Positions 20,973 through 37,947 of a stretch of DNA of 64,000 nt are shown piece after piece. Both the position numbers and the translations under genes were made by a program. Each line of letters opens with the position of its first letter. Positions within the stretch are counted from its first letter, which is position 1. The notes below the pieces were generated by a model. The model did not search any database. It was not told the DNA's origin and worked only from the letters and a program-made list of their open reading frames with translations. The stretch is taken from IMG/VR virus record IMGVR_UViG_3300008050_007409. One strand, written 5' to 3'. The DNA comes from a virus.

Positions 20973-23900
20973 TCGCCCTCCACCGTCTCGAATTCATCAG
21001 GGTTCTCGATCATGTAGTCGAGGGCAGCGTCGGCCGCTTCCTTCGTCTCGATGATCCTGTCCTTCTTCGACCCGGAGACAGCGATCCACGGGAGGGTGGG
21101 ATCAGTGTCGGTGATGAGATCGCTCTCCACCTCTCCGTTGAGCTCGAAGATGGCACGAGAGAGGGCCTCGTCCAAGCCCATCTCCGCAGCCTCGTAGGTT
21201 CTGGTCTCCGCTGCCAGGTACTCGGCCAGGTCGGCCAGGGCGATGCGGATCTCCACCTCTTCCGGGACCGTGGTGGACGTGTTGGTCCCGGAGTAGTCCG
21301 AGGAGGTGGACTCGTCGGGGTTCTCCCCTGCGACGTTGCTGCTGGCCGCGGAGCTCCCTGACGACGTTCCCGACAGGGCGGTGGACTGGCCCAGTGTGTT
21401 GACGGCCACCGCGGCCGACGCGGAGTAGGAGCTGTCCCCGGCCGACATCTCCGACAGGGCCTCGAGGTCTCCGGCCTTGATGGCGTCGACCGCCTTGTCC
21501 ATGCTGAGCTGCTCGAACAGCGCGGTAACCGCGGAGGTCTCGCTGTTGGCCGGTACCTCGAAGGCAGTGGCCACGTCCTGGATGGCCTCGATCTGGGAGT
21601 AGAGACCGTCGCTCTCGTTGAAGATCTCGTCCAGGACGTAGGAGACGCTGTTCCGGACGATGCTGTAGGTCGTGACGGTCTGACTCGACTCGAACTCGTG
21701 GTACAGCGTGAGGGCGCTGTACGTGGGGTCTGAGTGATCCACGGTCTCCACGTAGGAGAAGACCTCCCCGTCGTCGGAGAGCGTCATGTAGACCTGATCT
21801 CCGGCCTGGATGTCCGCCTCCTTGGTCACGTGGAGGGTCGGAGTGGTGTCGTCGGCGTCGGAGTCGTCCTCCAGCGTGGCCGTCCCTCCCGGTGATGCGA
21901 CGATCTCGACCTTGGCCTCGCCGCCGAAGTCGGCAATCACCTCGGCCAGATGGAGCTTCAGGTCGTCCAGGTCCTCGTCCAGGTCCAGCTGCTCGAGCAA
22001 GTAGCGGAGCAGGAGGAAGCGGCCCCAGGCCTGTGCCCCGTTGCGGGTGATGACGAAGGTCTGGTCCGTCAGCCCAGCGGAGATGCGCGGGTTGAGCTCC
22101 ACCGTCCCGGCGCCGGCGTCGACCTCCTCGATCTCGTAGACCTCGGATCGGCCCCAGACCGTGAGCAGGTCCCCGGCCTCGACCAGGCTGAGGTCGATGG
22201 GTGAGCCCTCGGTGTCGTCACCTGGTGTGAAGGTGACGGTCTTCATCTCCTCGAAGTCCAGCACCTTGTAGGAGACGGGCCCCTTGGACAGCGGCATCCC
22301 CTTGTCGATGATCACAGCCTCAGCAATGCCATCGCCGTCGAGGTCGCTGACCCCCACGACCTTCGCCTTGATCATCTGACTGCCCATGACGTGCACGGTG
22401 GAGCCCTCGACCCAGTCGTCGGGGACGGAGCCGGTACCGAAGCCCCCGTCCGCGAGGAAGGCCGCGTCCCGGTCCACCAGGTAGGTCGTGTCGAGATTGG
22501 TGCCGGGGAGCACCACGAACCAGGTGAGGTCCTTCCCGACCGAGGCTGGGAGGGAGGTCCGGAGCTTGAGGACGTGCTCGTCGGCGATGTCCACGATCTG
22601 GACTCGGCGGGAGCCCGTCACCAGCTCCATCCCCGGCTTGACCGTGTCGAAGATGGCGTAGCTCAGACCCGACTGCCCGGCGTCGAGCTGTGCAGAGACC
22701 TTCACCTCGCTGGCGCTGATCACCTCGATGATGATCACGTCCTGCTGATCGGGGCCGTTGGGGTCCAGCCGGATGATGTCGCCCAGGGCAGAGCTGCCAA
22801 AGGGGCTGTTCACGGTGTCGGTGAACACGTCCGTGGTCAGGCCTCTCCAGATCTCCCAGTCCTGCCAGGGGGTCTCCAGCACGTCCACCCGGTCCTTGAT
22901 GCGGATCGTGTACGCCGGCGACGTGGAATCGTAGGGATCTTCCCGCACGGCGAAGTAGACCTGGTAGGCGTTCCCGTCGTGCACCAGGTAGCAGGCGTCG
23001 CGAGAGCCGTCGTAGGTGATCGTTCCCGCGACGCTGTTGTCGTCCCCGTTGTCGTCGGTGAAGTCCAGGAAGTCGATCTTGCTCCCGTAGCTGTCGCTGA
23101 AGGCGAAGAGCCAGGTCTTGTCGTCCTGGGGCGACACGTGCCAACCCGTGTAGAAGGCCGGGTTGTCGGCGTCGTTGGGGAGCGAGTCGTCCAGCTCCAG
23201 CCAGTAGAGGCCGATCTCCGGATAGGCGTTGCGGTCGTCTGGGTTGTACTTCAGGTTGTAGTCGCCCTCGTGGGACGACATGGCTGAGGCGGTGATCACC
23301 AGCTTGTAGCCAGGGCTCTCTGCCAGGGTGTCCTTCAACAGCCCGGCGTAGACGATCACGTCCTGGCTGTTGAAGAAGTACGTGCTGTCCGGGGAGATGT
23401 GCCAGGTGATCTGGGTCGAGTGCTCCGTGAAGGGGGTGTCGACCTTGAGGTAGTTCTGACCCACCACCTCGGAGATGGTGTGCGCCTCTCCTCCTATGCC
23501 GATGGGCGTGCCCGTACCGGAGCCCTCGTGGAGGTAGAGCTTGTCGCCGGCGACGATGCCCTTGGTGAGGAACTCCCCGTCCGGATCGTAGAACAGGTCC
23601 GTGTAGTCCTCAGGGTGGAAGTAGACCTCGACCTGGGAGTCCTCGAATCCTGAGAACACTCCATCGATCTGCACGATGTTGTCGGAGATCAAGGCTGTGA
23701 TCTCGTAATCGCCTTCGGCGTCCCCTCCGGTGTAGACCCTGGCCACGTCCCCGACCTGCACCAGGGCATCGAAGAAGCTCCCCGCGGTGTAGATGTAGTC
23801 CGGTCCGATCGTGCTCGTATCCGTGACGCTGGCCCCGTTGTAGACGATGCAGAAGACGTCTGTCTCGTAGCTGGCGATCGTGCTGTCCAGCATGATGCGG

Positions 23901-25758: not shown

Positions 25759-26814
25759 CTACGCCAGCATGAGCGCTCCGTAGATGCGCCTCCTCTGTGC
25801 CGGCGACATCTGGTCCAGGTGGCCCTTTCCGGTGAGATCCTCGGACATCGACATGAACGCCCCGGAGCCGGGGAGATGGCTATCAGATTCGATCCCCTTG
25901 GACTTGGCGAGTCTGTGGATCTGAGCCGGAGAGGGTCCGGAGCCCGGTCCCCGCTTCTCCACCCCAGCTCCTACAGCCATGCCAGCTCCAGGCATCATCA
26001 AGGCCAGCGTCAGCTTGCCCTTCTTGAAGTACTCGTGCCGGCCTCCGTCTCCCTTGATGCCGGCGGCCTCACGCTGCAGACGGGACGCCCTCTCCGACCC
26101 TCTCGAAGCTGGGAAGCCGCCCTTCGGGGCGATCTTCACAGAAGAGATCGGAGATGCTCGAACCTCCTCTCCTGGGAGCTCCTTGAAGCCTTTGGAGAGG
26201 ACCTGATCGATCTTCTTCGTCCGGTAGAAGTCTGCCTGCCAAGCCCCACGCTTCCTGGCCATGAGCTGGGCCTTCACCACCTTCGGGTCCTTCCTCATGT
26301 GGACGAAGACGTCGAAGCTACCGGGATCGGCTTCGGCGAGCATGTGGGTCTGCTCGTAGACTCCGGGCTTGACCTGCTTGCGTGAGAGGGTTGAGATCTG
26401 CTGCGCAGTCATGTTCGGCTTGTCGTAGTGGAAGACCCTCGTACCGGCTTGCTCCGCCAGGGCCTTGGCCGTGGTGCTCTTGCCCGTACCTCCGGTACCC
26501 GAGACTGCGATCCGAGACTTCTTCGGATCCACTCCTGCGTCCTTGAGCGCCTTCAAGATCCGGGCAGCCTCGTCCTTCGCTCCTTGAGGTAGGGGTCGAG
26601 CTGCATCCACCTTCCGAGAACCTCCCTTGCCGACTCCCTTGATCATGGCCCGGAGATTGGCCCGAGTGCCCGGAAGTCGACTGAGGCCCAGAGCCGTTCC
26701 CGCCGCGGCTCCGATGGCGACCCCTCTCCAGGGGAACTTCCGCCTCTTCCGAGAGGCTCCCAGCTTCTCGATCTCGTCCCAGAAGTAGGTCGCTGACGTG
26801 GTGGAGATGTTCAT
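25759..26814 (-). CDS. leader-bearing basic protein with P-loop kinase-like domain
   Basis: YFWDEIEKLG leader; RIAVSGTGGTGKSTTAKALA Walker A; two Gly-rich hydrophobic helices. Confidence 0.75.
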   Translation of the reverse strand: MNISTTSATYFWDEIEKLGASRKRRKFPWRGVAIGAAAGTALGLSRLPGTRANLRAMIKGVGKGGSRKVDAARPLPQGAKDEAARILKALKDAGVDPKKSRIAVSGTGGTGKSTTAKALAEQAGTRVFHYDKPNMTAQQISTLSRKQVKPGVYEQTHMLAEADPGSFDVFVHMRKDPKVVKAQLMARKRGAWQADFYRTKKIDQVLSKGFKELPGEEVRASPISSVKIAPKGGFPASRGSERASRLQREAAGIKGDGGRHEYFKKGKLTLALMMPGAGMAVGAGVEKRGPGSGPSPAQIHRLAKSKGIESDSHLPGSGAFMSMSEDLTGKGHLDQMSPAQRRRIYGALMLA

Positions 26815-29268: not shown

Positions 29269-29468
29269 CAGACATCCACTCCCAACGTGGCGAGGTAGTC
29301 GTTGGCCTCGTCTATGGCCTGCTGGGTGGTGTTCTCGCTGGCCTCCGTCGACGCGGTCTTGATGCGCTGGAGCTGCTCGACCCGTGAGTCGACCTCGGCG
29401 CACTTGGCGTCGAAGACCTCCTTGACCGCGTCCTTGACCGCCTGAGCCTGAGTCGCCACGTCGCTCAT
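29268..29468 (-). CDS. small helical hypothetical protein
   Basis: ATGA overlap with sigma factor gene. Confidence 0.7.
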   Translation of the reverse strand: MSDVATQAQAVKDAVKEVFDAKCAEVDSRVEQLQRIKTASTEASENTTQQAIDEANDYLATLGVDV

Positions 29469-30217
29469 GTCAGACCTCGCTTCTTCATCTTGTCGTCGAT
29501 GCTCTTGCGGAGCCGGCTCACCTTCGGGCCCGAGACGTTCATCCGCCTGGCGATATCCTTGGCCGGGAGCTTGGGCTTGCCGTTGACGCCCAGGGTGTAC
29601 TCGTAGACCACGCGCTCCTGCATGGTCAGATCATGGTAGATGTAGCGCAGGATGTCCCGCTCCTCGCTCTCGAACAACGAGGGAAGCTGATCAGGCTCCG
29701 GCGTCATGGAGGCGATCCGGTCCTGGCGGAGCTCGGTCTCCATGCGACCCACCTCGGCCACGCTCCAGGTGTACTTCGGGTTGTGGGCCTGCAGCGCCTC
29801 CGACAGGGTTACAGCGTCCGGAGGATGGCCGAGCTGTTCGGTCAGATCCGCCCTGACTTCCTTGAAGGGGGTGATCTGGAGGGCACGGCCTTCGGGGATC
29901 CGCCCGAAGTTCTGGTGCTCGATGGTGAAGGACCGGAGCTTGCGCAGCTGCCAGTTCACCCAGGTGCGCACTCCGGCGCCCTTCTCGTTGTCCGGGTCGT
30001 AGGTCTGGAGACCCTTGAGGGCCAGCATCCGACCCTTGGATCGAAGCGCCTGCTCCGGGACCACGAAGTTCTTGGTCTTCGAGAACTCGCTGACCTTCCA
30101 GTCGACGTCCGGCTCGAACTCCTTCAGGAGAGGCTCGAGGTTCGCCTCCGTCGGATCTGCTTGCCAGGTCTTCCAGAGTTCGAGCTGCCTCTCCGCATCT
30201 GGATTGCGGCGAGCCAT
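29465..30217 (-). CDS. sigma-70 family RNA polymerase sigma factor
   Basis: Region 2 LKGLQTYDP..GAGVRTWVNWQLR; region 3 EQLGHPPDAVTLSEAL; region 4 LTMQERVVY..KDIARRMNVSGPKVSRLRKSI. Confidence 0.9.
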   Translation of the reverse strand: MARRNPDAERQLELWKTWQADPTEANLEPLLKEFEPDVDWKVSEFSKTKNFVVPEQALRSKGRMLALKGLQTYDPDNEKGAGVRTWVNWQLRKLRSFTIEHQNFGRIPEGRALQITPFKEVRADLTEQLGHPPDAVTLSEALQAHNPKYTWSVAEVGRMETELRQDRIASMTPEPDQLPSLFESEERDILRYIYHDLTMQERVVYEYTLGVNGKPKLPAKDIARRMNVSGPKVSRLRKSIDDKMKKRGLT

Positions 30218-30220
30218 TGA

Positions 30221-30763
30221 TCAGTACCCCGGACCGCTGCTTCCGCCACCGTAGCCCTGCTTCTTGTTCTTCTGGATGTCGTAGACGCGCTTCCCACCGA
30301 CAGCGGCTCCCGTGAGGCCGAGGCCGGCGGCGGTGCCGATGGCTACACGGCGGAGGGTGGAGGATCCGCCCTTCTTGTTGGTGGTGTTGGGGAGATCCAC
30401 ATGGGTGGGCGACTTCCGAGCGGGCTTCCCTTCCAGGATCCGGAGGGCGGAGTCCTGGTTCCCCCGTCCGGTACGGATCGCCTTCTTGGCCGCATCCCTC
30501 TCCACCTGGATCTGGGCCGTGGCCTTGCTGCGGGCCGCCTTCGCTCTGAGCCTGGATGCGTCAGCCATTCGGTGATCATCCGTGAAGGGCATGAACTTCT
30601 TCCACCCTCCCCAGCCAGTCGCGTTCCCTACTCGTTGGTGTTGCTTGGCGGCTCTGTTCGCCTGGGAAACCAGGCGATGTGCCTGACGGCTGTAGGCGAT
30701 CTTCTCCATCTCGGTCCAGAAGGCCTGGGCGATGGCGCGTCCGCGGGTGTCGAAGCTGTTCAT
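30221..30763 (-). CDS. leader-bearing basic protein with C-terminal hydrophobic helix
   Basis: AFWTEMEKIA leader; VAIGTAAGLGLTGAAVGG. Confidence 0.75.
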   Translation of the reverse strand: MNSFDTRGRAIAQAFWTEMEKIAYSRQAHRLVSQANRAAKQHQRVGNATGWGGWKKFMPFTDDHRMADASRLRAKAARSKATAQIQVERDAAKKAIRTGRGNQDSALRILEGKPARKSPTHVDLPNTTNKKGGSSTLRRVAIGTAAGLGLTGAAVGGKRVYDIQKNKKQGYGGGSSGPGY

Positions 30764-30769
30764 GTTGAT

Positions 30770-31915
30770 CTACCTGTAGACGACGGTGGTTTTGTTGCCA
30801 GCTGCCAGACCAGCGCCGCCTGCCAGCATGGTGCCGGCACCGCCCATCGCCCCCATGACGTTGGTGCGCTGATGCCTATTGAGGCCTCCCCACCACATCC
30901 CCATACGGGACTGACCCTGCTGCATGGGACCTTGGATGGGGGCTCCTCCCAACCCGAAATGGCGCTGGGCCCACGGCTGCTCTGCGGCGACTGGCGGTGC
31001 TCCTGTCGGAGCAACAGGACGACCTGCGGTTGCAGCGGGGTTGACCGGCTGAGCCGGCGCTCCCCCAACCACCGGCTGAGTAGCCGTGGGGGTCGGAGTC
31101 GGCTGAGCTGCCGTGGTGGGGGCAGCCGCGGGCTTGGCTGCGGCCTGCCTGCGAGCGAGCTCGGCTTCGATCTTCTTCTTCCGATCTGCCTTCCGCTGAC
31201 TCTTGGTCATCTGAGGCTTCTTGGGAGTGGCAGCCTGCGTAGGGGCGGGAGCAGTAGGACGTGCGGCAGTAGGAGTGCCGACGACCTTGGGCTGACTCAG
31301 GGCAGCCGATGCCGGTCCACGTGATCGGTCGGCGAGCGCAACGGATGCCGGACCCTTCCGCGCTCCGGCCTGGGCTCCCCCGGGAACCTGGACCCGTGCT
31401 CCAGGTCCGGGACCGGACGGAGGCTTCGGCATCTCGATACGAGCGCGAGGGGTACTGGACAGCGGAGCGGGCTTGGCACCGGTGAGGTCGATGGTGGGCT
31501 TCCGAATCTTGCTGGGGCTCACCCCGCGGTAGGCCGACTGGAACTGAACAGAGGCGTTGTCAGCGACAGCCCGAGCTTTGTTCTGCACGGTTCGCTTGGC
31601 TCGGCCGGCCGCGGCCTGGGCACTGCGTCCGAGGTTCTGAGCACTGCGTCCGGCACCAACCACACCAGTTCCGAGGCCTTCGAGTCCAGCGGCAGCTCCA
31701 CGACCTACGGCCCGGCCTCCTCGCGCCAGGTGGCCGAGTCCTCTGGCTACAGTACCTACGAAGGCGATCTTCTCGATCTCATCGTTGAAGGAGGCCACGG
31801 CGAGGTACTCGTTGGCCCCTGCGCGTGCCAACGCCTCGTCAGCAGCCCGGCGGAAGGATGCTGCGGATCCTCGGTGGTCCTGCGCGATCTTGTTCAGGGC
31901 TGAGGCGTGGGTCAT
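30770..31915 (-). CDS. leader-bearing Ala/Pro/Gly-rich basic protein
   Basis: LNKIA and SFNDEIEKIA motifs; low-complexity linker; C-terminal GAMGGAGTMLAGGAGLAAG. Confidence 0.75.
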   Translation of the reverse strand: MTHASALNKIAQDHRGSAASFRRAADEALARAGANEYLAVASFNDEIEKIAFVGTVARGLGHLARGGRAVGRGAAAGLEGLGTGVVGAGRSAQNLGRSAQAAAGRAKRTVQNKARAVADNASVQFQSAYRGVSPSKIRKPTIDLTGAKPAPLSSTPRARIEMPKPPSGPGPGARVQVPGGAQAGARKGPASVALADRSRGPASAALSQPKVVGTPTAARPTAPAPTQAATPKKPQMTKSQRKADRKKKIEAELARRQAAAKPAAAPTTAAQPTPTPTATQPVVGGAPAQPVNPAATAGRPVAPTGAPPVAAEQPWAQRHFGLGGAPIQGPMQQGQSRMGMWWGGLNRHQRTNVMGAMGGAGTMLAGGAGLAAGNKTTVVYR

Positions 31916-33747
31916 GATCTCATCCTATCCGATGGGGGCGTACCCTTCTCGCGGGTAGGCCTCGATCGAAGGATCTTAGCCGCGAGGGCACCTGTAGCGA
32001 AAGGTGCAGCGTATGTCGACCCTGCCGCCAGGAGGCGAGCTGCGGCCCTCCCGAGCTGTCGGTTGCTCGCTCCCATCCGCTTCATGTACTGCAGGCCCTT
32101 GGCCGTTGCAGTCGCTTCTTCCGCCAGCAGGGGAGCTCCAAGCAGTAGGGAGACCCCTCCGATGCGCTCCGCGAACTTCGCCTTGGCTTCGATCTCCTCC
32201 TTGGTGTGGAAGGATCGATCCGAGGCGCTGTCCAGGACGATCAGGGGAATCACCACAGCAGGGATGCGTGCGATCTCCCCGGCCTTCCGGGCGGCGGGGG
32301 ACGCGATGGTCTTGCGGCGGAGCTCCCCGGCAGTCGCATGCCCAAGCTCGTGGGCCAGGTCGGAGGCCCTGGAGGCGGACACGACGCCCTTGACCTTCCC
32401 TCCCTTGATCTTCTTCGCCAGGGCTCTGGCCTTGGCCTGCGCCTCCGGACTGGCCTCGCTGTGGGTGGACAGCAGCTCAGCGGCCTCTCCAGACAGGTCT
32501 GAGGGGTCGAAGCCTCGGTAGTAGGCCGAGGGCTTCTTGCCGAAGTGGATGCTGTCTCCGGACGAGCCGGCGTTGATCCTCTCCAGGCCACGATCGGCAG
32601 ACATCTGATCCAAGGCATCCTGGAGGACCAGGTCCTTTTCCTTGGCCTTCATCGGACTGATGCCCAGCTCCCAGACCAGGGAAGGGGCTGCGATCACGGC
32701 TGCAGCTGCAGCCGTGTGGGCGATGGAGGTGCCCTTCATCATCGGAGGATGGGTCTGGTGCCGCACTTGCTCCCTGGGCACCGGCAGGCCTCGTGTCCTG
32801 AGCTCGTCGTTGACCGCGTAGGTCACGGCCCGTCGAGAGGGGGTCCTCTCCGGATCCGGCCGTTGCTTGAGGAAGCTCTGAAGCCCCTGGTCAGACACGC
32901 CCCGCGCCTGGGATCGGGTGCTCGCGTAGAGCTGCCCGGCAGAGGATGCGGCAGTCAGCTGAGGTTGAGGCTGGTACTCCGAGGACTTCTTGGTCATCAT
33001 CCGAGCTGCCTCGGAGATGGCGACCGCGCCGATCACTCCAGCAGCGGCACGTCCGGCAGCGGCGCCACCGATCCCCCTCAAAGCCTTCCCGGCGTTGGGC
33101 CCCTTCAACGACTTCAGGGTCTTCTTGGCCCCGTCCTCGACGACCTTCTCGATGGCTCCCTTGGGGGCTCCGATCCCTGCTCCGATCAAGGCCGGCACTG
33201 CTACCCGGTCCTTCCAAGAGAGCTTCTTGCCCTTCTTCTGTGCCTTGGCGATGGATCTGGCGGTGATGGCTGCGGACCCCAGGCCGATGATGCCTCGAGT
33301 CCCTCCGATCTTCTTGGCGAGGTCCTTGATCTGAGTGGAGGTGAGCCCCCGACCTCGGTTCTTGATCCCGGCTTCGAGCCCGCCCTTGATGCCGGAGTAG
33401 GCCCCTCCCGCGGCGAGGACCTTGGCTGTCCCTTCCCTCTGACGCCCTTCCTTGAGGTCCTTGATCCCCGAGTAGAACAGAGGCGTGGTGAGGACGGACG
33501 CACCGAGGCGTCCCGAGGCCCTGCCGAAGCCGGACTTCCATGCCTTGGCCTTGACCGCAGGCTTCAGGCCCTTGGAGACCGCGACCTCGACCTTCTTGTC
33601 GACCCACCCCTTCGGGAAGTCAGCCGCAGACGTAGCGACGGCCACGGGGGCCGCAGCAAGCATCTGCGCCCCGTAGTTCCGCTTCTTCGACTTCTCCTGA
33701 GCGATCTTGCAGAGCTCGTAGGAGAAGGCCAGTCGCTCCAGGTCCAT
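31912..33747 (-). CDS. leader-bearing membrane-type protein with C-terminal zinc metallopeptidase (YugP/Zn_peptidase_2-like)
   Basis: AFSYELCKIA leader; AHELGHA..EEATATAKGL..LLAAGSTYAA; several glycine-zipper helices. Confidence 0.75.
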   Translation of the reverse strand: MDLERLAFSYELCKIAQEKSKKRNYGAQMLAAAPVAVATSAADFPKGWVDKKVEVAVSKGLKPAVKAKAWKSGFGRASGRLGASVLTTPLFYSGIKDLKEGRQREGTAKVLAAGGAYSGIKGGLEAGIKNRGRGLTSTQIKDLAKKIGGTRGIIGLGSAAITARSIAKAQKKGKKLSWKDRVAVPALIGAGIGAPKGAIEKVVEDGAKKTLKSLKGPNAGKALRGIGGAAAGRAAAGVIGAVAISEAARMMTKKSSEYQPQPQLTAASSAGQLYASTRSQARGVSDQGLQSFLKQRPDPERTPSRRAVTYAVNDELRTRGLPVPREQVRHQTHPPMMKGTSIAHTAAAAAVIAAPSLVWELGISPMKAKEKDLVLQDALDQMSADRGLERINAGSSGDSIHFGKKPSAYYRGFDPSDLSGEAAELLSTHSEASPEAQAKARALAKKIKGGKVKGVVSASRASDLAHELGHATAGELRRKTIASPAARKAGEIARIPAVVIPLIVLDSASDRSFHTKEEIEAKAKFAERIGGVSLLLGAPLLAEEATATAKGLQYMKRMGASNRQLGRAAARLLAAGSTYAAPFATGALAAKILRSRPTREKGTPPSDRMRS

Positions 33748-34516: not shown

Positions 34517-35782
34517 TCACTTCTCCTTGCCCAGGAAGGCGTTGACCAGGCGGAGGCGCTTGGCGCTCCGGATCCGGTGGACCGGGTTGAGTCCCCGCTT
34601 CCGAGGCTTCCTGGGCTTCTCAGCTGCTGTTCTGACCATCCCTCGCTGCTGAGGTACCGGCTTCTTGGGCTTCATCCACTTGTTGACCTTGACTGCCCCG
34701 TAGGTGCCCGCGCCCAGGACACTCAACCCTCCTGCAGCTCGGAGGGCGTTCATGGGCTGGGCCTTGATGCCTTGGATGATCTGCTTGACGGCGCTCTCCT
34801 TGTCCATGTCGCTGGCCGCTGAGTTCTTGCCTCCGGTGCCCTCCTCCTCGTCCTCGTTCTCCTCCGGCGTCTTGATCCGGTTCTTCTTGGACTTGGGTGC
34901 CTTCTGAGTGATGATCTGCTTGGCCCCACACTTCCGGCAGTGGTTGTCGTCCTCCTGGCAGACGGCTCCGCACTCGAGGCAGTTCTTCCGGCCTTCTTCG
35001 CTGAGGAGATCCTCCGTCTGGATCGTCCCCTCATCGGAGTCGTCAGCGGGGAGACGGGAAGACGCGGCCTTGGACTTCCCCTTCTTCAGTCGAGACTGGA
35101 ACTCCTTCTCAGCATCCCGACCCTTCTGGTACTGGACGTGAGCACCTCCCGCACCGATGGCTCCACCCAGCCCCAACTGTGCGTACCCGCCCGCCAGCTC
35201 CTTCCTGGCACCAGGTAGAACCTGCTTGGCTTGATCTTGGGAGATCCTGTTGGAGCTTGACGTCCTGAGAGGACTGCCGGCCTTCAGGGCCTTCTCGGCT
35301 TGGTCACGTGCCGCGTCGACACTGGCGTTGTCAGACATGTAGCGGAGGTTCTTCTTCTGGGCCTTGGTCAGGCTGACCCCGCCAGTGGTCTTGGCTGCAC
35401 GGTTCAGAGTCTTGACAGCCTTCGTCCCTCGGTAGACAGACTCCAAGGGGTATTTCGCCCCACGAACGGCCCCCGATACAGCTCCGCGAGCCATGCCTCG
35501 GACGCCGCCACCGCTCGCCAACCCCTTCCCTGCTCCGATCAGCCCGTGAATGGCGGAAGGAACGACGACAGCCCCACCGACAACACCACCGGCAACACCT
35601 GCCATCTGCTTCTTCCGATGCGTCTTCCTGCTGAGCCCCTTCCGCTGAGCCTCCTGCCCGTAGCGGCTGGTGTAGGCCCCAAAGGGATCGATGCCGGCCG
35701 CGAAGTCCTTCGCGTACCCTGCCGTCTTGATGATCTCGTCCATCTCCTGCAGCATGGCGAGCTCGATCATCTCAGACATCAC
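34517..35782 (-). CDS. leader-bearing multi-segment protein with glycine zippers and zinc ribbon
   Basis: AMLQEMDEIIKTA leader; AGVAGGVVGG; CLECGAVCQEDDNHCRKCG; internal KAAS, KESA, RTAA. Confidence 0.75.
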   Translation of the reverse strand: MMSEMIELAMLQEMDEIIKTAGYAKDFAAGIDPFGAYTSRYGQEAQRKGLSRKTHRKKQMAGVAGGVVGGAVVVPSAIHGLIGAGKGLASGGGVRGMARGAVSGAVRGAKYPLESVYRGTKAVKTLNRAAKTTGGVSLTKAQKKNLRYMSDNASVDAARDQAEKALKAGSPLRTSSSNRISQDQAKQVLPGARKELAGGYAQLGLGGAIGAGGAHVQYQKGRDAEKEFQSRLKKGKSKAASSRLPADDSDEGTIQTEDLLSEEGRKNCLECGAVCQEDDNHCRKCGAKQIITQKAPKSKKNRIKTPEENEDEEEGTGGKNSAASDMDKESAVKQIIQGIKAQPMNALRAAGGLSVLGAGTYGAVKVNKWMKPKKPVPQQRGMVRTAAEKPRKPRKRGLNPVHRIRSAKRLRLVNAFLGKEK

Positions 35783-37947
35783 GGACCTCCTCCGAACCAG
35801 CGGTACACGCGGGAGTCCCGCTTCTTCTGCTCGTGGGTATGCCTCTGCTGTAGCACATCCCGGAGCTCCCTCGTGTTCCTCGACTTCCGATCCGCAGTCA
35901 TGTAGGCGTACTGACCCACGCTGCGCTCCGCCTTCTGGAACGTGATCGTCTGCCAGAAGTTCTTGGGCACGGCCGTGACGTAGCGGTTGACGATCACGCC
36001 GCGCTTGTCCAGGGGCCGATGGCTCTGCCCGCCGGCCCTGATGCCGCGGGCCGCGGCCTGGTTCATGCGCTCGGGGTTGTAGTGCGGATCAGCCAGCGCC
36101 ACCATCGTCGTGTTGCCCAGGGAGAGGCCCTCGGCCCCAGCCCCGGTGATGATGATCACCTTCTTCTTCCCGGCCTTGTAGTCCTCCACGTCCTGCTGAC
36201 GCCGCTCCTCGGTCATGCCCTTCATGGACTTGCCAGCGAAGACCCCGTGCTCGATGCCTCGGGCCGTCAGTCCAGCGCTGATGACGTCGACCCCACCCTT
36301 CACCAGGTTGGTGTAGATGATCACCTTCCCGTCCGAGGTGGTCTTGAGGTGCTTCTGCACGTCGTCCATGATCCGCTTGATCTTCGGAGTCCGCTCAGCG
36401 GACTGGGCCGGGGTGAGCTTCCGGTTGACCAGGTGCATGGAGTTCGAGATCTGCTGGGCACGCTGCAGGCGGGTGAAGGCGTTCATCTCCTCCCGCTTGT
36501 TGAGCATGATCCCCAGGCTGATCTTCCGGCGCAGAGCCGGGTCCACGCCCTTCATGGCCATCTTGTAGGCCCGGAGCTGCTCCGAGCTCATGGGCACCGC
36601 CACGTCCTTGACGTGCTTGGGCGGCTTCTCGGTGGCGTTCAGATCCTCGATGTAGTGGATGGAGCCGCCGATCCGGTTGTAGAGCTGCTCCTTGTTCTTG
36701 AGCCGCTTCTCCATGACCTTGCCACCGAAGACGCCTCGCTGGGCGGTCTGCACCCTCTGAGTGTGCTGGCGGTGGAACTGCCTCTTGGTCTTGATCGGAG
36801 CCTTTCCGCCTGTGACCAGGTTGACCAGGGGGACGGCGTCGGAAGAGTCGTTCTGGGCGATCGAGGCCGTCAGGCCCATCACGTTGGGCACCCTGGTCCG
36901 TGCGTAGGCGATGGCCTTGTGGGTGGAGCTGTCCGGGTTGCCCGCCCGGTGGAACTCGTCCGCGATGAGCGTGTCGGGCTTGTAGGCGTCGATGAAGGCC
37001 TGGGGGTTCCGTCGGAAGGCTGAGTAGGACACCACGACGTACTCGGTGTCCTGGCTGACCTTCTGGTTGGCGTTGGTGAGCATCACGCTCTTGGATCCGG
37101 TGAACTTGCCGACGCTGTCGTGGAAGTTCTTGCGCAGCCCTGCCGGGGCGATGACCAGGGCTCGCTTGGCCTTGCCCTGACCCTTGAGCTTCTCGAAGGT
37201 GGCAATGGCCGAGACCGTCTTGCCGGTGCCCGTGCCATGGGCGGCGATGTGGCCAGAGGTCGGATCCTTCAGCACCTTCTTGGCGAAGTCCGCCTGGTGG
37301 GCCTTGAGCTTGACGAAGCCCTTGAGCCGGTTCTTCGTGACCCAGGTACGTCCGGCCTGTTCGTTGCCGAACTGGTCGTGTCCCTTCTGACCGGCCGGGA
37401 GCCGGCGCCAGTGGCCTCCTGACTCTGCGATCTTCTGGAACTCGACCTGGAAGGAGGCGAGGGCGACGTTCGACGCTGCCACCTTCCTGAGCTGGTCCGG
37501 AGGGACCAGCTTGAAGCGCATGTCGGACTTGCGGATCCTCGCCCGCACAGCGGGAGGCACATCGTGGAAGTTGTGCTTGATGACCCTCTTGAGGCTCGTC
37601 GGGGCGACGGCGTCCTTGTGGAACAGGTAGTGCTTCCCGACCCGGTGGGCGTGCAGCTTCCCCTTCCGCCAGGTGGGGGTGAACAACCGCTCGCCAGGCA
37701 GTGGGATCGCCATGCGAGTCTTCTTGAACCCACGCTCCTTGAGGTCCCCGATCTCCTTCGCGGACACCGCCACCTGAGGGTGCGTCCAGCCTGGGTTGAC
37801 CACCTGTTCGATGGCATCCAGGATCTGCTTCTCCGCCTTACCTCCATCCACGGAGATCAGCGGAACAGAGCTGTCCTTGGCGATCTTCTCCATCCCGACG
37901 AGAGCCTCGTCAGCGCGGAGTGCCTGGAACCAGCGCTGGGTGCTCAT
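35779..37947 (-). CDS. SF2 (SNF2-like) helicase with leader motifs
   Basis: AHQ, HGTGTGKT, ADEFH, GLTAS, KVIIYTN, AGAEGLSL, YNPERMNQAAARGIRAG; MEKIA and SFQVEFQKIA upstream of the helicase. Confidence 0.92.
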   Translation of the reverse strand: MSTQRWFQALRADEALVGMEKIAKDSSVPLISVDGGKAEKQILDAIEQVVNPGWTHPQVAVSAKEIGDLKERGFKKTRMAIPLPGERLFTPTWRKGKLHAHRVGKHYLFHKDAVAPTSLKRVIKHNFHDVPPAVRARIRKSDMRFKLVPPDQLRKVAASNVALASFQVEFQKIAESGGHWRRLPAGQKGHDQFGNEQAGRTWVTKNRLKGFVKLKAHQADFAKKVLKDPTSGHIAAHGTGTGKTVSAIATFEKLKGQGKAKRALVIAPAGLRKNFHDSVGKFTGSKSVMLTNANQKVSQDTEYVVVSYSAFRRNPQAFIDAYKPDTLIADEFHRAGNPDSSTHKAIAYARTRVPNVMGLTASIAQNDSSDAVPLVNLVTGGKAPIKTKRQFHRQHTQRVQTAQRGVFGGKVMEKRLKNKEQLYNRIGGSIHYIEDLNATEKPPKHVKDVAVPMSSEQLRAYKMAMKGVDPALRRKISLGIMLNKREEMNAFTRLQRAQQISNSMHLVNRKLTPAQSAERTPKIKRIMDDVQKHLKTTSDGKVIIYTNLVKGGVDVISAGLTARGIEHGVFAGKSMKGMTEERRQQDVEDYKAGKKKVIIITGAGAEGLSLGNTTMVALADPHYNPERMNQAAARGIRAGGQSHRPLDKRGVIVNRYVTAVPKNFWQTITFQKAERSVGQYAYMTADRKSRNTRELRDVLQQRHTHEQKKRDSRVYRWFGGGP

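Follow-up and report, generated by a model that had tools for sequence, protein, structure and literature searches.

Do copies of a cargo leader within phage genes mark the joints at which separate proteins were fused, and would the products come apart again at these joints? This question is raised by a 64,000-nucleotide (nt) stretch of DNA, the whole of which is termed the window here, from IMG/VR virus record IMGVR_UViG_3300008050_007409. It concerns mainly two neighboring genes, one encoding a 722-amino-acid (aa) helicase precursor (35779..37947) and the other a 421-aa cargo protein (34517..35782); the genes and all their features given below are on the minus strand. The window represents positions 5204-69203, in reverse orientation, of record G000, a 104.7-kb linear virus contig with a completeness of ~60% (CheckV). 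The cargo leader is amphipathic and helical, with the consensus F-x-x-E-h-x-K-[ITVL]-[AG]. As an N-terminal peptide it is common to ten G000 genes, six of them inside the window, whose products are otherwise unrelated virion-module proteins; a short peptide shared in this way is a T4-type trait. A sequence-only reading of the window had proposed that such genes were built by fusing leader-plus-cargo units, that leader motifs separate the segments, and that the products are cut into several mature proteins.

To score leader copies, the ten N-terminal leaders were turned into a 13-column matrix that used BLOSUM pseudocounts, and ~32,000 residues of predicted proteins were scanned with it; the training leaders themselves were scored by leave-one-out. 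True leaders had leave-one-out scores of 6.2 to 26.0 bits. Shuffled proteomes gave 0.4 matches above 12 bits and 0.085 above 14 bits, and about 10 chance matches at 6 bits. The open reading frame (ORF) of the helicase precursor, which is the same on two contigs, has the order leader, N-terminal module (N-module), internal leader, and SWI2/SNF2 helicase. The N-terminal leader, residues 13-25 (37873..37911), has K-I-A at residues 21-23 and scored 6.2 bits in leave-one-out; a start of the M-S-x-x-R-W-F-x-K-L-A type is present in homologues as well. The internal full leader, residues 164-176 (37420..37458), has K-I-A at 172-174. It was the top non-training position in the scan. Because it scored 13.8 bits, the best non-training value, against a shuffle expectation of 0.1-0.4 per proteome, the internal string of the helicase gene is a real leader copy.

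The segments on both sides of this copy are predicted to be folded. The N-module (residues 27-140; 37528..37869) was modelled by AlphaFold as a confident domain with a predicted local distance difference test (pLDDT) score of 86-96. The SWI2/SNF2 ATPase core (residues 178-722; 35782..37416), which starts with G-H-W-R, was confident in the full-length model (pLDDT >90). Residues 1-24, comprising most of the N-terminal leader, had pLDDT <50 and were disordered. The linker at 140-150 was weak, and a helix at 150-175, modelled with moderate confidence just before the core, contains the internal leader. A short K-V-A site lies in the tail of the N-module (residues 153-159; 37471..37491). Pfam families SNF2-rel_dom (PF00176, 56.5 bits), Helicase_C (PF00271, 50 bits), and ResIII matched the 722-aa protein above cut-off; Foldseek matched the core fold to ISWI, Chd1, CSB, and SsoRad54 with E ~1e-22, and phmmer matched it to 1z63. 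Both leaders of the precursor are predicted to be outside the folded domains. The motif at residues 166-174 (37426-37452) lies between the folded N-module and the core, exactly as had been claimed for it.

Comparison with other helicases indicated how this arrangement may have arisen. A search of 5.8 billion proteins revealed 66 clear relatives, and the 54 with a recognizable core start (G-H-W-R) were counted. Short forms, with <60 residues before the core, accounted for 38/54, and long forms, with 64-595 residues before it, for 16/54. In the short forms, a leader-like start (M-S-x-x-R-W-F-x-K-L-A or the full F-x-x-E-L-E-K-T-A) is followed by the core a few residues on. Long forms have the same type of N-terminus, then an unrelated module, and then a second K-x-A directly before the core; the inserted modules are P-loop kinase-like, H-E-x-x-H, hydrophobic segments, or of unknown type. 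Among these cluster representatives, which share ancestry as do all those counted below, the last 16 residues ahead of the core contained K-[ITVL]-[AGS] in 35/54 (2% expected, judging by how often it occurs in the cores) and K-x-[AGS] in 47/54 (14% expected). Control motifs (reversed, R-, and E-variants) were present at this position in 1-4/54. In long forms, what precedes the core is often no more than the short terminal part of the motif, L-x-K-x-A(-E).

Several architectures have more than one joint or exchange their parts. P0047 (1128 aa) consists of a P0014-type module, a full leader at 350-362, a P0015-type module, and the helicase, and P0006, P0010, and P0031 have one sub-module in common, each in different company. 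The internal leader of the helicase precursor is therefore the positional counterpart of the short-form N-terminal leader, with a cargo unit put in front; by this comparison the two are evidently homologous in position. As a separate observation, the helicase homologue P0053 has an intein with an HNH domain (PF14890, PF13392) that splits the Walker A loop after G-T-G and before S-G-K-T.

The unit put in front, the N-module, behaves as a mobile cargo domain. With residues 1-177 as query, a database of 1.84 billion representative proteins gave 72 clusters at E≤1e-3, and 71 representatives were analysed. D112 and H125 are invariant in the module, and R94, H99, H101, and H110 are near-invariant. 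The module matched no Pfam family and no fold in the PDB (best Foldseek E 0.44; best Z 3.2 in the wide VIA-align comparison), and a protein atlas comparison (score 0.80) was uninformative. It is a widespread His/Asp-rich phage domain and may be an uncharacterised metal-dependent enzyme delivered by capsids.

Strong leader matches in the 71 representatives were concentrated at the borders of this module. Of 31 such matches, 27 were no more than 26 residues from a border, 20 upstream and 7 downstream; among the remaining four, three were far away and one was a weak match inside the domain. Nineteen of the upstream leaders belong to stand-alone proteins of 135-190 aa, and the twentieth, in P0082, is internal, at residue 219. 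The seven proteins with a strong leader 8-25 residues downstream are P0089, P0092, P0096, P0109, P0115, P0141, and P0142. Thirty-six fusions extend at least 45 residues beyond the domain; the 39 residues that follow it contained K-[ITVL]-A in 16/36 (7% expected) and K-x-A in 31/36 (22% expected), while five control motifs were flat. Fusion partners include InPase (PF18823), GNAT families, C92 papain-like amidase (PF05708), 2H phosphoesterase (PF22547), and a P-loop domain, and in P0142 the partner is a distant SNF2 helicase. The latter protein (628 aa, from a distant lineage) has the order N-module, full leader, SNF2 helicase (~30% identity), without an N-terminal leader. This order suggests that the pairing of N-module and SNF2 helicase may be older or recurrent.

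A profile search did not find the N-module in five related virus records with a short-form helicase, two of them complete. The same profile, as a positive control, found the module once in its own record, inside the helicase gene. The N-module is therefore an accessory unit that was inserted into the helicase gene of this lineage. A search for related loci with the single N-module or alignment A3 as query gave no relatives.

The 421-aa gene has the order leader, glycine-zipper (Gly-zipper), zinc-ribbon (Zn-ribbon), and hydrophobic/basic tail. Its leader (residues 11-23; 35714..35752) ends in K-T-A and scored 6.6 bits in leave-one-out. The Gly-zipper module covers about residues 24-237 (35072..35713); the Zn-ribbon, with weak Zn_ribbon matches, has two C-x-x-C pairs at residues 268-286 (34925..34981) that are invariant in P0149. 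Three homologues were found in all, P0075, P0076, and P0149, and each is built differently. P0076 (249 aa) consists of leader and Gly-zipper only and ends 2 residues past the position aligned with residue 236. P0075 (495 aa) has the Gly-zipper at 143-359, preceded by a different N-terminal module and followed by a KTSC domain. The related loci L003 and L006 have the Gly-zipper as a separate 284-aa gene elsewhere in the same block; tblastn searches of 77 related loci with the Zn-ribbon/tail segments, the N-module, and the 381-aa protein described below detected nothing beyond this Gly-zipper.

P0149 (291 aa) showed an exchange of the middle module. Its leader is identical to that of the 421-aa protein at 12/20 residues and has the same K-T-A; the homology breaks right after it. 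A different module of ~90 residues, with a sub-threshold DUF6582 match, occupies the middle, and the Zn-ribbon plus tail (residues 244-416) are 45% identical. The junction string S-K-A-A-S of the 421-aa protein (residues 237-241; 35060..35074), which is not significant as a motif match, has K-I-S-A-A as its counterpart at the same place in P0149. The swap is therefore bounded by the leader end on one side and by S-K-A-A-S / K-I-S-A-A on the other.

The sequence-only reading had assigned two further separating strings to this gene, and for these the outcome was mixed. M-D-K-E-S-A (residues 326-331; 34790..34807) and M-V-R-T-A-A (residues 382-387; 34622..34639) are present as candidate weak sites. 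M-D-K-x-S-A is kept in P0149, and M-V-R-T-A-A, which has R instead of K at the key position, is inside a nine-residue block identical in P0149 within the region of 45% identity. Conservation in P0149, the only homologue of this part, shows constraint on the strings and does not imply a function. All three strings, including the one at the swap boundary, lack K-[ITVLM]-A and scored ≤5 bits each; as motif matches they do not exceed chance. Of the five internal motifs listed by that reading, three are too weak to count as leader copies. A cut between Zn-ribbon and tail has no comparative support, because these two were never seen apart.

A third gene, encoding a 381-aa protein (30770-31915), had been credited with two motifs, and one of them held. 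The second is a full leader placed late (residues 43-51, leader start at 41; 31763..31789, minus strand) with a leave-one-out score of 18.4 bits. In L002 the positional counterpart of this gene carries its leader at residues 30-42, and in L003 at 28-40; because of this late placement in both loci, the pre-leader segment is a conserved feature of the gene. The first motif (residues 6-11, K-I-A; 31883..31900, minus strand) scored 5.5 bits, which is at chance level, and is not clearly conserved in the positional analogues.

These comparisons indicate that both the 722-aa and the 421-aa gene are mosaics assembled from independent virion-cargo modules, and that a cargo leader either comes with each module or stands in front of it. 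The proposed origin by fusion of leader and cargo units was borne out: each main segment occurs alone or differently fused in relatives, with the leader or K-x-A at the joints. The N-module and the Gly-zipper are found as stand-alone proteins, and the helicase core is found in short form in the 38/54 helicases mentioned above. The leader or its K-x-A end is shown by these alignments to stand at module joints, and the modules to recombine freely among related phages. The motif is likewise shown to be kept at the joint even where the protein already has an N-terminal leader.

Evidence on cutting is indirect. In T4, the capsid targeting sequence is carried by IPI-III and Alt and is removed by the prohead protease gp21; its front part serves as the address, its last residues govern processing, and any cargo bearing it is carried into the head (PMC9026906). 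Because the last residues govern processing in T4, the short L-x-K-x-A(-E) end kept before long-form cores fits this picture. K-[ITVLM]-A was also enriched in three G000 genes outside the window (G000:C1:95058-97058, 79704-80888, and 103043-103903; L078, L079), with 10, 7, and 4 copies versus 1.2, 0.9, and 0.5 expected; none of 300 shuffles reached these counts. These genes are beside cargo genes and near the large terminase, and most copies have the form h-E-K-h-A, like the leader end. They had no family assignment and no PHROGs name. As a guess, they may encode scaffold or core proteins that the head protease would process.

We lean, by a narrow margin of confidence, toward a pathway in which the precursors are loaded by the leader and then cut by the head protease at every K-x-A joint, so that the N-module and the SNF2 ATPase would be released as separate ejected proteins. 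The N-terminal leader would take the precursor into the procapsid in the manner of the T4 capsid-targeting sequence, and every K-x-A would be cut, there or immediately beside it, by the head-maturation protease. Two products, a His-rich N-module protein of ~130 residues and a SWI2/SNF2 ATPase of ~550 residues, would come from the 722-aa precursor; the 421-aa precursor would be split into a Gly-zipper protein and a piece with Zn-ribbon and tail, the latter possibly cut once more. All of them would leave the capsid with the DNA, as would the RNA polymerase and sigma factor of the phage. In this proposal, in-frame insertion or swapping at the leader would be tolerated because every unit brings an address and a cut site of its own, and such tolerance would account for the variety of architectures.

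Several points weigh against this pathway. No cleavage was observed, and the case for cutting comes from the T4 precedent and the K-x-A enrichment in the three genes. For the head protease itself, Pfam S77/S78 searches were empty or sub-threshold in G000 (~60% complete) and in three relatives, and the S77 control matched nowhere. The head-core label of the K-x-A-rich proteins is a guess because they have no family assignment. The internal leader of the helicase gene is modelled as a moderate-confidence helix adjoining the core and could be a structural element. Similarly, K-x-A after the N-module could belong to the domain's own conserved tail. The enrichment counts overstate independence because the homologues are related. 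Finally, K-[ITVLM]-A is not matched by the weak strings of the 421-aa gene, and P0075 has a junction with M-L-A, which lacks Lys.

The fusions and the position of the leader would be explained equally well if the leader served targeting only, i.e., as a scaffold- or core-binding helix that remains uncut, its internal copies being fusion leftovers or extra binding sites and the proteins staying whole. The leader is predicted to be helical, and the N4 virion RNA polymerase stays whole in the particle. Polyvalent proteins that are delivered unprocessed exist (PMC5512222). We consider such an uncut address unlikely, however: before the core, long-form helicases often keep just the K-x-A(-E) end, which in T4 is the processing part, the N-terminal part being the address (PMC9026906), and the 4-10 K-x-A repeats in three non-cargo proteins resemble a cleavage code more than an address. 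Cutting by some other enzyme, either a cargo-borne zincin-type metallopeptidase or a host protease, is less probable again. A candidate is the leader-bearing 611-aa neighbor (31912-33747, minus strand), which has H-E-x-x-H near residue 470 and sub-threshold Peptidase_M48/M78 matches, and which is possibly a cargo metallopeptidase of the zincin type. Relatives such as P0009, P0106, and P0138 also have H-E-x-x-H modules in their inserts, and peptidase-mediated processing of polyvalent proteins was proposed by Iyer et al. (PMC5512222). Yet the M48/M78 matches do not reach the Pfam cut-off, neither the 722-aa nor the 421-aa gene showed an MPTase family domain, and K-x-A enrichment beside the terminase fits a head-assembly enzyme better.

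Two helicase products could also arise without proteolysis, if the internal leader were the start region of a short helicase translated from Met143. An in-frame ATG is present 21 codons before the internal leader with G-A-G-G-A 13 nt upstream, and T4 gp21 itself has an internal start (PMC9026906). The spacing and sequence at Met143 are, however, no better than chance in GC-rich DNA, with no convincing ribosome-binding site, and real starts in the block are heterogeneous. The fusions P0047, P0109, and P0142 would each need an internal start of their own, and K-x-A at joints without Met would be left unexplained; we therefore regard two translation products as very improbable. We give hardly any credence to chance resemblance, i.e., accidental matches in Lys/Ala-rich proteins. 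It may describe the three strings of the 421-aa gene and the first motif of the 381-aa gene, which score at or below the level at which about 10 matches per proteome occur by chance, but it is already refuted for the helicase site and fails for the family-wide placement at module borders.

Capsid-targeting leaders, multi-site processing by head proteases, and polyvalent proteins are each already known. The likeness to T4 lies in an N-terminal peptide of ~10 residues on unrelated, poorly conserved, basic internal proteins, and the T4 targeting sequence was suggested to be an evolutionary device for adding new cargo (PMC9026906). However, the peptide here ends in K-x-A (K-[ITVL]-[AG]), whereas that of T4 ends in (L/I)-x-E, and a following Glu is present here only in the helicase family. 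The peptide also occurs here inside genes, between modules, and its cargo includes a 550-residue SNF2 ATPase. In phiKZ, 201phi2-1, and SPN3US, the prohead protease acts on several A/S/G-x-E sites in head proteins and in proteins destined for ejection (PMC10052503). Our phage resembles the SPN3US type in being large and in having many internal or ejected proteins, a packaged RNA polymerase, and several motifs per precursor. The T4 scaffold has many gp21 sites (PMC9026906), and the K-x-A-rich genes resemble both this scaffold and the multi-site precursors of SPN3US (PMC9026906, PMC10052503). In SPN3US, however, the extra cuts shred long N-terminal propeptides that are discarded, whereas the pieces between motifs here are conserved, folded, and independently occurring domains. 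The joints here carry K-x-A in place of the A/S/G-x-E motif of that type.

Polyvalent proteins such as P1 DarB and DdrB are strings of unrelated effector domains that are delivered with the DNA and extensively shuffled (PMC5512222). Two unrelated domains per polypeptide, the minimum for this class, occur in the N-module plus SNF2 and in the Gly-zipper plus Zn-ribbon, and relatives have up to three modules. The domain repertoires overlap in SWI2/SNF2, InPase, GNAT, papain-like amidase, 2H, P-loop kinase, and zincin. Their separation is proposed to involve an embedded MPTase, whereas none was found in the 722-aa or 421-aa gene. Modules delimited by copies of a capsid-cargo leader, as here, are a feature not found in the passages of that paper that were consulted. 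Full-text literature searches gave no description of this leader, or of leader copies that delimit swappable modules in cargo genes with a K-x-A rule in place of the Glu rule.

If the joints are cut, new injected proteins could be added by a simple and general rule: cargo may go in at any in-frame site, provided that a leader precedes it. Sequence would then suffice to predict which mature proteins uncultured large phages inject, and where effectors such as the packaged SNF2 ATPase and the His-rich domain truly begin. A second, non-Glu specificity class of head protease would become available for packaging foreign proteins into capsids, a use already made of the T4 leader. Two topics so far treated separately, capsid-targeting leaders and polyvalent proteins, would become linked.

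A bolder extension, which we put forward tentatively and hold to be somewhat doubtful, is that the K-x-A leader is a universal cassette joint: capsid address, protease cut site, and preferred point of in-frame recombination via 12-16-nt microhomology in one. Throughout a lineage of uncultured large phages, any effector, such as the SNF2 ATPase or the His-rich domain, could then be inserted into existing cargo genes and delivered as a separate protein. The leader-coding DNA of different genes (e.g., 37873-37911, 30689-30727, 31757-31795) has exact runs of 12-16 nt in common, G-A-G-A-A-G-A-T-C-G-C-C and longer, a microhomology sufficient for in-frame illegitimate recombination. These runs were rejected as independent evidence for recombination because a shared peptide with this codon bias is expected to yield them.

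The surroundings of the two genes add several minor observations. Particle genes form one long minus-strand block from about 7.6 to 45 kb of the window; it includes a baseplate-wedge-like gene and has recA and nuclease genes on its flanks. The window has a GC content of 61-67% and no tRNA genes. A neighboring 823-aa protein had no match in cultured phages by tblastn. The leader-bearing 351-aa protein (25759-26814, minus strand) has a P-loop with weak AAA and thymidylate-kinase-like matches; P-loop kinase-like modules are also inserts in the helicase homologues P0010 and P0013. The cargo block is closed by a sigma-factor-like 250-aa gene (29465-30217, minus strand), and a sigma-like gene of 239-261 aa with the same N-terminal sequence pattern directly follows the last leader-bearing gene in L001, L002, L003, and L006 as well. 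The window differs from G000 at 12 of 64,000 bases. Five of these differences fall inside one 82-base segment (22616-22697, minus strand) of a large 1588-aa tail-region gene, a local hot spot of strain variation.

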